Below, one piece after another: positions 16,541 to 62,050 of a DNA stretch of 64,000 nucleotides; position 1 is the stretch's first letter, and every line of letters starts with the position of its first letter. The translations under genes and the position numbers were made by a program. The notes below the pieces were generated by a model that had not been told where the DNA came from, made no database searches, and was given only the letters and a program-made list of their open reading frames with translations. Source of the stretch: a bacterium (lineage in GTDB: Bacteria > SM23-31); the NCBI GenBank assembly GCA_965221205.1, contig OZ244870.1:1038065-1102064 (forward strand). Reading direction: 5' to 3'.

Positions 16541-17494
16541 GTGAATCAAGAGATATTAGATATTAAACAAGACATATTTCAATCGCACTATGAAATAGTA
16601 TTAGGTGATACTCTTGGAAATTTGCGCAAGACAGAATCGGAAAAATTTAATTTAATTATTACTTCACCTCCATACAACATTGGGAAAAATTATGAAACAA
16701 AACAACCTATTGAAACTTACCTAAGTCAGCAAGAAGAAGTTATTGATGAATTGGTGAGAATAATTTCCAATCAAGGAAGTATATGTTGGCAAATTGGAAA
16801 TTATGTAAATAATGGTGAAGTTTTTCCATTGGATATATACTATTATCAAATTTTTAAAAAGCATAATTTATTTTTAAGAAATAGAATAATATGGCATTTT
16901 GGACATGGTTTACATGCTTCTAATAGATTTTCAGGAAGATATGAAACAATATTATGGTTTACAAAAAGCAATGATTATATTTTTAATTTAGACGAAGTTA
17001 GGGTGCCATCAAAATATCCGGGCAAAAAGCATTTTAAGGGTCCAAAAAAAGGAAAGTTTTCTGGTAATCCTAAAGGTAAAAATCCAACTGACATATGGGA
17101 GGTTTTACTGAGTGATTGGGAAAAGGAAATATGGAATATCCCAAATGTGAAATCTAATCATCCTGAAAAAACAATACATCCCTGCCAATTTCCAATAGAG
17201 TTAGTTGAAAGATTTATTTTAGCGCTTACTAATATAGGAGGTTGGATTCTTGATCCATATGCTGGTGTAGGTTCTTCAATTATTGCCGCTATAAAAAACA
17301 ATAGAAATGTAATTGGAATAGAAAAAGAAATTGATTATGTCGATATAGCAAAGGATAGAATAAAAAAACTGTTTGAAGGTAATTTAAAGCTCAGACCTAT
17401 GACAAAGCCTATCCACCAACCTTCACCAAAAGATAAAATTGCTAAAATTCCTGAAGATTGGCTGTTTGATAATAGAGAAGGTAATACTCAATGA
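16541..17494 (+). CDS. DNA methyltransferase, beta-class (N4-cytosine or N6-adenine)
   Basis: Motif IV TSPPY precedes motif I LDPYAGVGSS; GTG start; stop overlaps the next gene start (ATGA). Confidence 0.8.
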   Translation: MNQEILDIKQDIFQSHYEIVLGDTLGNLRKTESEKFNLIITSPPYNIGKNYETKQPIETYLSQQEEVIDELVRIISNQGSICWQIGNYVNNGEVFPLDIYYYQIFKKHNLFLRNRIIWHFGHGLHASNRFSGRYETILWFTKSNDYIFNLDEVRVPSKYPGKKHFKGPKKGKFSGNPKGKNPTDIWEVLLSDWEKEIWNIPNVKSNHPEKTIHPCQFPIELVERFILALTNIGGWILDPYAGVGSSIIAAIKNNRNVIGIEKEIDYVDIAKDRIKKLFEGNLKLRPMTKPIHQPSPKDKIAKIPEDWLFDNREGNTQ

Positions 17495-18105
17495 AAATTG
17501 CACAAAAATATTCACATTTAAATGGAGAAGAATACTTGATAGTTCACCATAATAAGTTATACTCTGAGATTAAGAGAATTATTCAAAGTATCGATGCGGA
17601 TAATTTTAAAACAAAAATTAGTAAAGAGAAAACTAAAAAAGGTTTAAAGCTTTATAGCCCAATAGGATTGAATAAAGTATTTGATAAGTTGTTTTCAGAG
17701 AACAATTGGAAGGAAAGTAGATATCAGTACTATATTACACTCAATAGGGAATTAATGGAAAAAAGCATTTTACTTCCGGCTAAAGAACAAAAGGATTTTT
17801 TAGTTTCATCAGGTGAAAAAGAGCCATTATTTTCATACAACCAAACAGATTTTGTAAAAGAAAAGATTGCAGTTGAGATGCAATTTGGTAAATACTCATT
17901 TGTTGCATATGATTTGTTCGTAAAGCATATGTTGTTTTACTCAGGTGGTATTATAAATCTAGGGATAGAAATATTACCTACTAAAAAGATGCAATCTCAA
18001 ATGTCGTCTGGAATTGCATATTTTGAAGGAGAGGTTTATAACGTTATGCGGCATGGAAGAAATAACCCACCAATTCCTTTGCTAATAATTGGTATTGAAC
18101 CATGA
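17491..18105 (+). CDS. Type II restriction endonuclease, BglII/BamHI family
   Basis: 204 aa; block VEMQFGKYSFVAYDLFVKHMLF closely parallels BglII TLVEVQFSNYPFLLNNTVRSELF (recalled from memory); 4 nt overlap with the methyltransferase. Confidence 0.65.
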   Translation: MKIAQKYSHLNGEEYLIVHHNKLYSEIKRIIQSIDADNFKTKISKEKTKKGLKLYSPIGLNKVFDKLFSENNWKESRYQYYITLNRELMEKSILLPAKEQKDFLVSSGEKEPLFSYNQTDFVKEKIAVEMQFGKYSFVAYDLFVKHMLFYSGGIINLGIEILPTKKMQSQMSSGIAYFEGEVYNVMRHGRNNPPIPLLIIGIEP

Positions 18106-20802: not shown

Positions 20803-20975
20803 AAGTAAATCTCCAAAAAGGCAAAACATCCAACTTTTTATAAAGTTGAAGTTATGAGCTGAAATATGCGGTTTATTAAACCGATGGTGTATTGTCTTCA
20901 TTCCTTTCTCTTATCCTCTGTGATGATGATCTCCTCAATCGACTTCGGGCCGGTGACGTCAATCGTTTGCTGCTT

Positions 20976-21200
20976 TCAATCCGGTATCAGCTTCTTTAAT
21001 ACAGTTGATATTGCCTTTGCATTGCCGCTCAGTGCCATTTTGACAATCTCTTCGTACACATTTTTGCCCGTGTCCTCTATCTCGCTACGTAATGTTGTAG
21101 CGTTCCGATCAATAAATCGTTTGAGAAAAAATCCTGAGAGGAATCCTCCAGCGAATGATAACCAGAGTGCGATTATTATACTTATTGTTGTAATAGCCAT
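20976..21200 (-). CDS. Small hypothetical membrane-anchored protein
   Basis: 74 aa with N-terminal hydrophobic helix (IIIALWLSFAGGFLSGFF); chosen over the overlapping plus-strand ORF 20866-21249 on protein-likeness only. Confidence 0.3.
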   Translation of the reverse strand: MAITTISIIIALWLSFAGGFLSGFFLKRFIDRNATTLRSEIEDTGKNVYEEIVKMALSGNAKAISTVLKKLIPD

Positions 21201-21894
21201 ATTTGGAATGATAATGAGTGTAAATGGTTATGCAAGTTGTTTTTATTGACTGCACAACTGTTAGCAAGGTTAAAACATTGTGGTATATGGAGTTACGAAG
21301 ATGATTCGGATTGTTGCTAACGCTTGCTGACGTTCTAACTTCTTATATTTGTATATAGTTATATAGTATATAGTATAGTATGTCAGCAACATTTAATATT
21401 TATATACCTCATACGCGAGAGTATTACTCTGTATGTGTGATTTTTGTATAAATATTTATTTAAATAATAATATATATCTATCTAATTTTGAAGACATGCT
21501 GACAAGCGGTTTTTTTGGGACTTAAACATTATAGTAAACAAATAATTTGAAGGTGTTAGCAAAGATGTTAGCAAACTGGCAAAAATGGGTGAAAAATGGG
21601 GGTTTGTCAGCAACTTTTTGATGTTTTTAATAAAAATTATTATTGTTAAAATTTGTAAGCAAATGGCAGGAAATGGAGTAAAAACTAAAAAGTTTTAAAA
21701 AATTTATTGCAAAAAAAGTTTAATAAATGTGCTACAATGTGTTCGATTGTGTTCAGGAGAGCTGAATTTGTCCGTTATAACAACGCGGTGAATTATTGAC
21801 GGATAAGTTCTATGGTGGTGCTCTGATTTTATAAAGAAATAGTTTGGAAATTTTTTTATTGTTGTTTATATTTAACATTCGAACCTCCTTTGAG

Positions 21895-21969
21895 TGGTGG
21901 AGCTGTGGGGAATTGAACCCCAGCCGTCGGGTGCAAACCCCGATGTCCTCACGCCATGAGAACGGCCCC
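21895..21969 (-). tRNA. tRNA-like element (75 nt) with canonical T-arm and Ala/tmRNA-type 3' end CAGCUCCACCA but atypical D-arm
   Basis: Minus strand reads GGGGCCGTTCTCATGGCGTGAGGACATCGGGGTTTGCACCCGACGGCTGGGGTTCAATTCCCCACAGCTCCACCA; T-stem TGGGG/CCCCA with loop TTCAATT; acceptor has a G3-U pair and one C-A mismatch; anticodon-like loop GTTTGCA; 4 nt D-to-anticodon linker is non-canonical. Confidence 0.35.
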
Positions 21970-22276
21970 GCTTCACAAAAGGTATGGGGAAGTGGAATGT
22001 GTATTGTCTGCTAACAATTGCGTCTCCACTTCCCTTTTATTTTTAGATCTCAGTCAGATTCTTCTATGTCTCCGGCACCTTTTACACCTTTTACCATGAA
22101 AATGACTGGAGGGTCTCTGCAGAAAGAAATAATTTTCTTGACAAAATAATCAAAAAATCCTACATTAAAATGGCACATGGGTACACCTTTTACCTTTCTT
22201 AAGGTGTTCTTATGTCGTTGATTATAAGAGTGGTGCAAGTCTTAGCCCGACAGTGCCACTCTTTTTTTCTAACGGA

Positions 22277-22675
22277 TTAATTTTCGATACTTCTTCGATA
22301 CTTCGTATTTAAGCCAGAACCAGTTTTGTTAACATATCCATTCAGAACAAGTTTCTGCAAAGGTGAATTTACAGAAGCAAGTAAATCTTTTGCTTTAGAT
22401 TTTAATAATCCTTTATCTTTCATTTTTTTAAGTTCATCTCTGAGAGCAGGAGGAGTCCAATCTACTTTGGAGTATTCATCAAATATGTTCTTTATAACAG
22501 CAGAAGTGCCTAATTGCACTCCAGGATCTCCCTTAACATTTGTTGAGGTCTCTTCTGTTGAGGTCTCTTCCAAATTTTCCGTTAAAATTTCTATTGCTTT
22601 TCGAATTGTCTCAGCTTTTTCATTTAACTTTTTCTCTTGTTGTTGCAAGGCTTCGATTATTTCATTATGGCTCAT
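22277..22675 (-). CDS. Hypothetical protein (coiled-coil N-terminus)
   Basis: 132 aa ORF; its ATG lies at the first bases of the 75 bp tandem repeat. Confidence 0.4.
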   Translation of the reverse strand: MSHNEIIEALQQQEKKLNEKAETIRKAIEILTENLEETSTEETSTNVKGDPGVQLGTSAVIKNIFDEYSKVDWTPPALRDELKKMKDKGLLKSKAKDLLASVNSPLQKLVLNGYVNKTGSGLNTKYRRSIEN

Positions 22676-22822
22676 GTCTTTTTGTCCTCTCTTGCTTTTC
22701 TACTTTGTAAATATAATCAATAACTTCTCCATGTCAAGAGTTTTCTTCATGTCTTTTTGTCTTCTCTTGCTTTTCTACTTTGTAAATATAATCAATAACT
22801 TCTCCATGTCAAGAGTTTTCTT
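22673..22822. repeat. Tandem direct duplication, 2 x 75 bp, one mismatch
   Basis: Copy 1 22673-22747 and copy 2 22748-22822 (CATGTCTTTTTGTC[C/T]TCTCTTGC..GAGTTTTCTT); each copy carries on the minus strand a TTGACA-16nt-TATATT promoter-like element and an ATG. Confidence 0.8.
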
Positions 22823-23993
22823 GTTATTTTTAAAACAATAATAAGTATGCTTTGTTTTTGCTATTTGGAATTAGGTGTGTGAATGATAGAAAAATAAAAG
22901 TGGATAAACTCCAGTAAAAATACTACGTATTATTGCTGCAGTCTTATCAATTGTTGTCGGTATTAGTCTTTTAGCTAATAATTCCAATCCAGTATATCCG
23001 CTAATCTGTGGAATATTATTCTTAATTTTTGCAATACCCCATATTAAAAAAATCAGTTTTGGGCAAGAATTAACATATATAACATCCCAATATTACTTTA
23101 CATAGCAATACTGGTGAAGAAGTATCATTTAAAGAAGAGTCAAAAATGAAGTTTTTAGTAGATAAGAAATTTGAAGAGGTGGACACCTGGTGCACAGGAA
23201 CAGTTACAGGATTTAAATCAAATTTAGGAGAAATAACTGAACAAGGTTATGATTTAGATGGTAAGTTACCCTTGCGATTGAATTATGATATAGTCCAGAG
23301 AAAAACGACCAGTAACTAAACCAACTGATTTTCTTAGCATTACTGTTATTTTCCCAGATAATAGAAAATGGAAAGGTTATAAAGGTAGATATGAAGGTAA
23401 AAATACAAAAATCAAACTTCATGAAATCCAGCCTCAACCCTCTAAAATGGATGAAAAAGATTGTTTAATATGGGAAATTGATAAACCTAAATTAAATCAC
23501 AAATATAAACTTGAATGGACATGGTATATTGTCATACAGTCTCTTGAATGCGTTTTTTTCGCCTCTCCCTGAGCGCTTCGATCAATAACATTTCAACTGT
23601 ATTTGAAAACATCCGGTTGTCACGTTCGGGTCGGCGTAGTGATTCGACTTCGTTATTTACTCGCTCTTCAAGACGGATTGTTCTGTGTATTTTAGTCATT
23701 GTACTCGCCTTCTATTCTTCACCAAATATGTATTGTACAGGTATGCCTACGGCACGAGTCGACATGCCAGGTTCAAAGCGTATTAATTTCACACTTTTAG
23801 TTCCATCGATGCGCAGCAGCACGTTCTTCCAGCCAGTATGCCAGGCTGTGTCCTTGAGCAGCTTCCGTTCGACCACCAGCTCTATATTCTTTACTCATCC
23901 GGTATAAAAGGGACTCCTAAATGTATCGTTCATAATGCCGGCGGAACACTCCTTCAACATTTTAAAAAAGTCGCTCTCTATACAATTATTGTA

Positions 23994-24610
23994 TTATTCA
24001 CCCTCTTCATATACCGGTGGAGGTGTGAAAAACAGGTGGCACTGGAAGCAGTCTTTCTTATCCTCGTCTTCCACATCGGTCAATGTTTTATTAAAGCGAG
24101 GATTAAACTGACCGTTATGGCAGACACCGCAGTCATTAAACATAAAAGGCCAATTGGTTTTATATTTGCCGACAAATTCGGGATCACCGTGTGTGATTCC
24201 GCGATGGTATTCAACACATTCGATTTTTTCGCGCTCGACATGGGTCCGATGTGCCATGATGAGTCCTTGTCCCTTAAGAGTATTATCAGGTAGATCGTAC
24301 CAGCCCATTTCATTAAAATAAAGAATGGAGTTGTGGCAGCCCATACAGTTTTCCGTAGAAATCGGAAGCGGTTCCTCGTGGGGACTCAGTTCGTTACCTC
24401 GGATAATTGCCACCATAAAGGTCGTGTACTCCCATAACCTGCGTCTTGAGTGCGCCTTTGATTCCCGGTTCGATATGACCAGTCTACACAGTTGATGTTT
24501 TGATGGGTTCCTTTTGCCCAGGTTACTTTCTGATCAACATGGCATGAACTGCAGACCATATTTGTTTTAAAAAATATTTTTTTGCAGGAATTTTCATGGT
24601 CTTGCTGCAC
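23994..24610 (-). pseudogene. Multiheme cytochrome c (NapC/NirT/NrfH-like), frameshifted
   Basis: Heme motifs CSSCH, CMGCH, CGVCH, CFQCH split across ORFs 24386-24610 and 23994-24416; a third frame restores the expected CVDCH at the junction. Confidence 0.5.
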
Positions 24611-24705: not shown

Positions 24706-25415
24706 TTATTGAGCGTCGATCAATTCATCGAGTTTCTTCTCGAGACCAATCGGACCGGACCATGGCTGAAAGAGTGCCGCTTTTCCTTCTCTGTCGATGA
24801 GGAGCATGCTGTTCGGAGCACCGCCTCCCAGCGTATTCTGGAAGGTTGTCCTTTGCAAAACCGTCAATGATAATCGGGCGTTTCAGGCCGTGATCCTCAA
24901 CAAGAATCTTGGCATAATTGACCCGGTCATCGACTGTTTTGGTCTGTTTCCGGTCTGAAAAGTCGTAACTCCGCATCTTCTCTCCGGTATGAGGCTCCTG
25001 TGTGTAAACTGTATAGAACTCGACATCTTTATCCTTGTATTTTTCGTACAGAGCATCCATATCAGGTATTTTCCCTAAGTAGAGCGGTTAAGTACAGGCT
25101 CCCATCTCGAGAACGAGGATTTTTCCCCGTTTGTCTGAAAGCTTGAAACTATCACCCTCATACGTTATGCACTCAAAATCTCCGATAACAGAACCGTTAT
25201 CAGGCCCTTTCCAGAAACTCCAGTCGGCTTGCATCCGCTGTCTCATATTTTTGCGCTGACCCAATATCAAAGACGGTCATAGTCCATACTGCACACAAGA
25301 AGCTGATAATGAGTAGTTTTCTTATATCTGACCTCCTGATTACAGATTGGTGGATTGTTACTAATGAATAAAAATAAAATTTATTGTAATAGTTACAAAC
25401 ATTTTTCTTATACAA
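24706..25415 (-). pseudogene. Thioredoxin-fold redoxin (TlpA-like), disrupted by in-frame TAA and frameshifts
   Basis: Pieces 25200-25415 (signal-peptide-like LLIISFLCAVW), 25088-25270 (..KRGKILVLEMGACT then TAA) and 24725-25060 in the same frame, plus a frame-shifted C-terminus ending ..LDELIDAQ at 24706. Confidence 0.5.
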
Positions 25416-61775: not shown

Positions 61776-62050
61776 CTTTTTTAATCGAGTCTACACGAAT
61801 CCTTTCTCGACGAGCGTACTGCCCTTGGACGTGACGACATGCTTCTGACCGGAGCCGTCTACTATACGACACCAGCTCTCCGATACCAGCTCTCCGATAC
61901 CAGCTCGGCTTCGACACCAACGCGCTCAAGGCGAAAGGAAAATCCGCCATACATTCCCGGCACCGGGAACCACATTTCAGGTCTGTCCAATTCCAGCAAC
62001 GGTTCCAGGACCGGGAGTCGCAGCTGATTCTGATCTACCAGCTTTCCCGC

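Follow-up and report, generated by a model that had tools for sequence, protein, structure and literature searches.

A recent 75-bp tandem duplication of a promoter-like module ahead of orfA in a truncated insertion-sequence relic

Ahead of a small open reading frame, orfA, in a 64,000-nt stretch of bacterial DNA (the window, by which the whole stretch analysed is meant), a promoter-like element, an SD-like run and a start codon occur twice, in near-identical units lying head to tail. Such an arrangement raises the question whether orfA is equipped with a regulatory device, for example a repeat whose copy number can change, or whether an ordinary mutation has caught a promoter-like sequence by accident. 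The first-pass annotation of this DNA had entertained both, reading the repeat as recent replication slippage that may change expression or as an expandable copy-number switch. The features from which the answer has to be built are the following.

22747 to 22821, no strand assigned: distal copy of the 75-nt unit (upstream relative to orfA), found by TRF, a repeat search and a period-75 comparison
22672 to 22746, no strand assigned: proximal copy of the unit, its end lying 1 nt past the orfA ATG
22785 to 22812, minus strand: distal sigma-70-like site TTGACA-16-TATATT, 11/12 matches, from a promoter scan; function putative
22710 to 22737, minus strand: proximal sigma-70-like site TTGACA-16-TATATT, 11/12 matches, from the same scan; function putative
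22760 to 22765, minus strand: distal SD-like counterpart, AGAAGA
22685 to 22690, minus strand: SD-like AGAGGA ahead of orfA
22700 to 22750, minus strand: upstream open reading frame (uORF) of 16 codons, MKKTLDMEKLLIIFTK, from the distal ATG (22750-22748) to a stop TAG (22702-22700)
22675 to 22673, minus strand: proximal ATG, the start of orfA
22277 to 22675, minus strand: orfA, 132 aa, accessory gene of an IS4-superfamily insertion sequence

The tandem array reported by TRF extends from 22672 to 22822 with a period of 75, 2.0 copies, 98% matches, 0 indels and a score of 295, which is within 1 nt of where the first-pass annotation had placed its two near-identical 75-bp units. Direct comparison at period 75 and a repeat search agree on two head-to-tail 75-nt copies that are 74/75 identical without indels, an identity of adjacent copies that is beyond the reach of chance. 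The identity at period 75 spans 76 positions with a single mismatch: base 22822 extends the homology by 1 nt (junction microhomology) at the edge of the array, and the period-75 comparison revealed no direct repeats flanking the duplication. The sole difference between the copies is at 22687 (C on the plus strand, G on the minus strand) versus 22762 (T on the plus strand, A on the minus strand). Read on the minus strand, the unit is AGAAAACTC-TTGACA-N16-TATATT-N20-AGA(G/A)GA-N9-ATG-A and thus begins 9 nt ahead of the -35-like hexamer and ends one nucleotide after the start codon of orfA; the copies meet at the junction sequence GACATGAAGAAAACTC. An iteron or operator array can be ruled out, there being just two copies and, on reading the sequence, no clear palindrome within the 75-nt unit. 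TRF arrays scoring at least 50 number four in the 64-kb window, two of them inside the 820-bp relic described below; the other two are at 61867-61906 (14 nt x 2.9) and at 170-195 (12 nt x 2.2).

Whether the genome really has two copies was asked of the reads by way of contig ends, following the proposal that a read-level copy-number check should expose an assembly artefact. The Logan assembly of run ERR13605531 uses k=31, so that k-1 = 30, and the positions at which its contigs end serve as the check. One contig (L003), 100% identical to the window across 9,967 nt, ends at window position 22793 and includes just 30 nt (k-1) of the repeated sequence starting at 22822; bases 22822 to 22793 recur at 22747 to 22718, and the node at this end has two incoming edges only if the reads contain the copy-to-copy junction. 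A second contig (L001), 100% identical across 10,441 nt and also encoding the exact 132-aa OrfA, starts at window position 22717, its first 31-mer terminating on the lone variant base 22687, where the path forks into a G and an A version. Since both breaks match the k=31 graph, the junction and both variants are present in the raw reads; since a single-copy locus would yield one unbranched contig path, the breaks speak against a single copy. Were they due to another element in the sample, its region of similarity would need to have both limits precisely at these bases. The 75-bp duplication is therefore genuine and present in raw-read k-mers, and the duplication stands with both breaks at the k-1 borders. 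It should be noted, however, that ERR13605531 may share its sample with the long-read assembly, so that it provides an independent assembler and not necessarily independent DNA, and that the contig ends show at least two copies, a number that does not separate two from more. The exact contig ends of public k-mer assemblies can be used in this manner as a read-level test of repeats.

Each unit carries an 11/12 match to a sigma-70-type promoter, a predicted site at the same relative position as the TTGACA site in the relatives of the insertion sequence. The two sites TTGACA-16-TATATT, each followed by an ATG as the first-pass annotation had described, are the best two consensus matches between 20500 and 24500, the consensus used (TTGACA/TATAAT) being an assumption for the host that may not be that of this uncultured lineage. 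Shuffling of the surrounding 4-kb region gives an expectation of 0.22 sites with at least 11/12 matches per shuffle, and 8 are present in the whole window; the two duplicated matches count as one event, not as independent ones. The single base by which the copies differ (22687 versus 22762) falls within the SD-like run. Both open reading frames that had been assigned to the two ATGs, the proximal one opening orfA and the distal one the 16-codon uORF, are there. The uORF is in frame with orfA because 75 nt are 25 codons, and it is ended by the leader's own TAG; it crosses the proximal promoter-like site and ends just upstream of the orfA SD, its stop lying 24 nt before the orfA ATG. It is absent from the relatives of the insertion sequence and, from its sequence, is nothing other than the orfA start codon joined to upstream sequence, a by-product of the duplication. 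The RNA structure of the leader is not significant (fold z = -0.83), and Rfam finds no family in the 64-kb window at gathering thresholds and none in the leader at E<=10. Two other candidate coding regions were discarded: an N-terminal extension of OrfA is ruled out, the in-frame TAG at 22702-22700 shutting the frame, and an antisense open reading frame of 171 aa (22326-22841, plus strand) is a mere mirror of orfA and the repeat and not a gene.

What OrfA might do has to be asked of its predicted structure. When OrfA was scanned with Pfam, PHROGs, NCBIfam and PADLOC, no family came up to its cut-off or close to it. A word-indexed search returned one homologue (P0002, 126 aa, 65% identity), and an exhaustive HMMER search 85 remote relatives of about 130-150 aa; alignment of OrfA against metagenome contigs gave 0 confirmed matches, as did the back-translated motif DWTPPALRDEL (0 matches in metagenome contigs). 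With 42 sequences AlphaFold2 modelled OrfA at a mean pLDDT of 86.6, a run that replaced an unusable one with two sequences (pLDDT 43.7). The model has a long N-terminal helix (residues 3-42), a disordered linker (43-50) and a C-terminal domain of three helices and a beta-hairpin (H57-67, H75-87, H98-111, E115-118, E125-128), that is, the three-helix bundle and beta-hairpin wing of a winged helix. The top Foldseek matches in the PDB are the winged helices of Fur, Zur, PadR, ArsR and histone H1 with a probability of about 1, at an E of only about 3e-3; a PDB sequence profile search with OrfA returned coiled-coil noise only. The prediction for OrfA is thus a coiled coil combined with a winged helix, and the protein is most likely a dimeric, DNA-binding accessory protein, the fold being predicted from the model and the function deduced from the fold. 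The gene is intact and retains the residues conserved in the family.

Although the first-pass annotation was right about the duplication itself, it missed the context, which is that orfA belongs to a truncated insertion sequence lying in decaying DNA. The remnant comprises the following features.

22096 to 22914, minus strand: truncated insertion-sequence relic (left repeat, leader, orfA and about 180 nt)
22892 to 22914, minus strand: left terminal inverted repeat, CTGGAGTTTATCCACTTTTATTT
22227 to 22262, minus strand: hairpin AGAGTGG-N22-CCACTCT just past the orfA stop, conserved and terminator-like, without a T run

Full-length relatives define what is missing. In two contigs (L004 and L005) an identical segment of 2436 bp (L004 9797-12232) stands in two different surroundings; the insertion sequence proper is 2435 bp long (L004 9797-12231). 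It ends in 23-bp terminal inverted repeats, CTGGAGTTTACCCACATTTATTT and CTTGAGTTTACCCACATTTATTT, that match at 22/23 positions, it is flanked in L004 by a 7-bp target duplication, TATCAAT, and a copy at 97.7% identity is found in a third contig (L007). Only the relatives thus show a target-site duplication and the occurrence of one element in more than one context. The 2435-bp element of L004 and L005 is a bona fide insertion sequence. It holds orfA and a 406-aa transposase of the DDE_Tnp_1 type (Pfam DDE_Tnp_1, 1.1e-16), which falls below the curated cut-offs of the NCBIfam models for IS4, IS1634 and IS701 (best IS4_1, 70 bits versus 115). Since the transposase is under every NCBIfam IS-family cut-off, the assignment to the IS4 superfamily is a loose one and nothing finer is claimed. 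The gene for P0002 occurs in at least 3 genomic contexts, always with a DDE_Tnp_1 transposase gene about 400 nt downstream. In the two remote relatives that have enough downstream DNA (L090 and L098) the next open reading frame matches the N-terminus of the transposase at 73-76% identity, which argues for a conserved two-ORF architecture; three others (P0003, P0007 and P0010) are on contigs of less than 1 kb whose context is uninformative, and one (P0074) adjoins an IS1595 transposase, not DDE_Tnp_1. In L090 (719-979) and L098 (919-1116) this N-terminus is conserved at 73-76% of its amino acids compared with about 29% for OrfA. GGAGG-type SDs precede the genes of the relatives, which suggests that this family of insertion sequences relies on SD-dependent translation. 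The relatives define a previously unnamed, unremarkable group of two-ORF insertion sequences, whose OrfA is without a Pfam family.

The relic is 78% identical to these full-length relatives through the leader ends and orfA. Homology to the 2435-bp elements stops at 22096, about 200 nt ahead of the expected transposase start; tblastn with the relatives' 406-aa protein finds no transposase in the window, and no second inverted repeat occurs in the 64 kb even when 3 mismatches are allowed. Having neither transposase nor right repeat, the copy in the window is an immobile relic and not a functional insertion sequence, and with the right end missing a target-site duplication cannot be expected in the window. 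The non-coding stretch 22096-22276 (minus strand), which begins with the AGAGTGG-N22-CCACTCT hairpin, is 85.6% identical to the relatives, above the 79.8% of orfA; a consensus fold of the spacer between orfA and transposase shows no covariation among three sequences. The left-repeat pattern gave 0 matches in genome contigs, and the searches of genome and metagenome contigs found no other genome or contig carrying the relic.

A RidA gene and a small cytochrome gene flank the AT-rich, variable stretch in which the relic sits. From 20888 to 23990 it measures 3.1 kb in the window and is partly different in another strain (L002, 98.9% identical), while a related species (L009, roughly 90% identical) has 1.1 kb of unrelated sequence in its place; the relic is absent from both. 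In the related species, moreover, 3.4 kb are inserted between S9 peptidase and RidA. A membrane-protein open reading frame of 62 aa that is intact in L002 abuts the outer end of the left repeat in the window, where it remains at 22915-23095 (plus strand) truncated at its 5' side by the end of the insertion sequence; both ATGs have gone together with the first 10 nt, and an in-frame TAA within the inverted repeat stands ahead of it. Another open reading frame, of 150 aa in L002, has lost about 71 bp in the window and is thereby broken into pieces of 57 aa and 41 aa.

23146 to 23572, plus strand: split open reading frame, breakpoint near 23309/23310

Of the DUF5681 gene of L002 only a C-terminal fragment is left in the window, fused to other sequence: the last roughly 32 residues of a 74-aa open reading frame at 20976-21200 (minus strand) are shared with it, and the N-terminal part is a hydrophobic segment. 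Probably this frame is what rearrangement has left of an integrative element; a DUF5681 gene is found beside an integrase and a D5-type primase in L004 and L006. To judge from these sequences, the setting of the relic is decaying, strain-variable and pseudogene-rich mobile DNA.

The same stretch contains a tRNA-like gene at 21895-21969 (minus strand), called tRNA-Gln(UUG) by ARAGORN. Rfam gives nothing there at gathering thresholds; its best sub-threshold match is tmRNA (33.6 bits versus 47), covering the acceptor and T arm only. The gene has a G3:U70 pair (the alanine/tmRNA identity pair), a C6-A67 mismatch, C37, an encoded CCA and an 8-bp hairpin where a normal D arm is expected. It is absent at the same locus of L002 and L009, and its 3' half has 0 matches in viral contigs. 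It could be borne by a mobile element, or be a relic of an att site or of ssrA.

With the relatives at hand the direction of the change at the repeat can be read. All five elements compared (L004, L005, L006, L007 and L008, 78% identical) have a single TTGACA-17-TATCTT unit and none has the 75-nt repeat; their site lies 61 nt before the orfA ATG, the proximal site in the window 62 nt. Because the relatives carry one unit at the same distance, the 75-bp duplication is derived. At the variant position the base of the relatives is G (AAGGA), so that the proximal AGAGGA is ancestral and the distal AGAAGA a new substitution, which would be expected to weaken the SD-like run ahead of the uORF. One change in 75 nt is about the 1.1% by which the window and L002 diverge, from which it follows, with a very wide error, that the event is recent, on a within-species scale. 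The recency that had been proposed for the duplication therefore holds, with one substitution between the copies, and of the comparison with related strains that had been recommended, the related strain and species are without the relic, the derived state being read from the one-unit insertion sequences. The mechanism fares less well: replication slippage can only be deduced, and the 1 nt of microhomology and lack of flanking direct repeats do not indicate slippage of the classical type.

The 75-bp duplication is not the only one in the relic.

22541 to 22570, no strand assigned: second tandem duplication, 15 nt x 2, perfect and in frame (EETST EETST)

It is located inside orfA, 100 nt away, in the predicted disordered linker of OrfA. 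P0002 has one EETST copy, so this duplication is derived, too; the relatives have a 15-nt repeat of their own downstream of orfA. A dN/dS of 0.54 for orfA of the window versus a relative indicates weak constraint on the gene.

Several known systems resemble the locus in part. In the cyp51A promoter of Aspergillus fumigatus, TR34 and TR46 are short tandem duplications upstream of a single gene; they are eukaryotic, duplicate transcription-factor sites and confer azole resistance that has been proven to be selected. The window likewise has a short tandem duplication of promoter-like sequence, but in a bacterium. As in two-ORF insertion sequences of the IS4 superfamily (DDE_Tnp_1), the left end is kept, whereas the transposase and the right repeat of the intact elements are gone. 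With simple-sequence contingency loci the locus shares a repeat near promoter elements that could alter expression by gain or loss of units; such loci, however, are made up of many short units of 1-9 nt, whereas here 75 nt are present twice, and the window contains no long homopolymeric or short-unit tract and no switch of reading frame or spacer length. A short open reading frame in the 5' leader ahead of the main gene is reminiscent of leader-peptide attenuators of the trpL or ermCL type, but the uORF is not conserved and has neither a run of regulatory codons nor alternative RNA hairpins.

The closest parallel is in Mycobacterium tuberculosis, where promoter tandem repeats of 57 bp (dop), 58 bp (lpdA) and 54-56 bp (cysG-efpA) are known, those at dop, lpdA and cysG varying at 10^-2 to 10^-3 per chromosome (PMC12817950). 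Their copy number differs between strains and within cultures, and a second copy of the lpdA promoter repeat leads to more biofilm biomass (PMC12817950); the mechanism of promoter-repeat copy-number variation has so far been documented mainly in this organism. The repeat described here is likewise a head-to-tail unit of 50-80 bp with a promoter-like site directly upstream of a gene, originates from tandem duplication and is easily collapsed or broken by short-read assembly. It differs in having two copies in one genome and in belonging to a gene of an insertion-sequence relic. Mechanistically it appears to be of the same kind as a promoter tandem repeat or duplication, and of the features that define this kind it is the repeat structure, at least two head-to-tail copies of one unit, that is present.

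Taken together, we consider it likely, at a probability of roughly 0.7, that the duplication is real, derived and essentially accidental, with at most a mild quantitative effect. It is a lineage-specific recent mutation of an ordinary kind with no sign of a dedicated function or of a designed regulatory device. Given that orfA is part of a truncated insertion sequence and that its islet is decaying, the default is to read the mutation as neutral or of mild consequence. The 75-bp duplication would have originated when replication or template switching went wrong at 1 nt of microhomology, in DNA that is rich in AT and weakly constrained; this one event has copied the whole module of promoter-like site, SD-like run and ATG of orfA. 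If the host polymerase reads the hexamers, there would be two tandem promoters of the sigma-70 type 75 bp apart, and transcripts from the distal one would carry the 16-codon uORF as a by-product. Since 24 nt separate the uORF stop from the orfA ATG, such transcripts could still yield OrfA. Expression of orfA might rise modestly at most through the added promoter, or change little through promoter interference; the change of expression that the first-pass annotation had suggested is in this sense plausible, as deduced from the arrangement of the predicted sites. The case matters little in itself, but is a clean and datable example of a short tandem duplication in decaying mobile DNA, in which one step would have created a second complete module of promoter, SD and ATG plus a de novo uORF.

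There is something to be said against an accident. The unit spans the whole 66-nt module from promoter to ATG with 9 nt to spare, and a random 75-bp duplication in the 820-bp relic would capture this module about 1% of the time, an estimate that was made post hoc. Capture of the whole module is the pattern expected had higher expression been selected. The intact orfA with its conserved residues may indicate a gene still in use, and the substitution weakening the SD before the uORF could reflect selection, though it is a single event only. One may therefore think of an adaptive promoter tandem repeat, selected for raised or copy-number-variable expression of a useful winged-helix protein, a repeat that would gain and lose units as its copies slip or recombine. 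Such a repeat would be in keeping with a unit that is a complete near-consensus promoter-like site with SD and ATG, with the roughly 1% chance of its capture by random placement, with an intact gene that has conserved family residues and a confident winged-helix model, and with the precedent of the M. tuberculosis promoter repeats (PMC12817950). We nevertheless regard it as unlikely: only two copies are seen, and these in one genome, within an immobile relic of a decaying islet; the dN/dS is 0.54; 100 nt away there is another duplication, one that has no regulatory meaning; and no relative has the 75-nt repeat. The stronger proposal, that the host has kept orfA as a small winged-helix regulator and that the 75-bp unit expands and contracts in the population, is decidedly improbable. 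If it were true, the levels of a regulator in an uncultured, non-pathogenic bacterium would be heritable yet reversible, and if the copy number were variable, phase variation by promoter tandem repeats would extend beyond the mycobacteria.

Still less credence is due to a leader built into the family, in which the uORF would act as an attenuator or the paired units as operators for autoregulation by OrfA. The end of the uORF 24 nt before the orfA ATG could permit coupling, and OrfA as a predicted DNA-binding protein could bind its own leader. However, the uORF and the second unit are missing from all relatives, the uORF is to all appearance the orfA start codon fused to upstream sequence, and the unit has no clear palindrome; with no significant leader structure and a uORF that is not conserved, an attenuator is unlikely. 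Least credible of all is an artefact of assembly in a genome having one copy: mis-assembly of tandem repeats is possible, but two contigs of ERR13605531 end exactly where two copies would make a k=31 graph break, variant base included, and a one-base difference between the copies is unlike simple stutter.

Some observations concern other parts of the window. The closest matches of the S9 peptidase near the islet are in unclassified MAGs (OZ252239.1, 92%; OZ251221.1, 77%), followed at 64-69% by MAGs labelled KSB1, Krumholzibacteriia and Calditrichia, which as a single-protein comparison gives a rough placement. At 16541-18105 (plus strand) a BglII-like restriction-modification pair is found (N6_N4 methyltransferase and Endonuc-BglII), whose GC content of 28-33% beside genes of 50-55% suggests horizontal acquisition. 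A multihaem cytochrome c-like frame at 23994-24610 and a frame at 24725-25270 (both minus strand) each consist of two overlapping or adjacent open reading frames and are possibly frameshifted; L002 has the same gene calls at both places, so that the split is common to the two strains.
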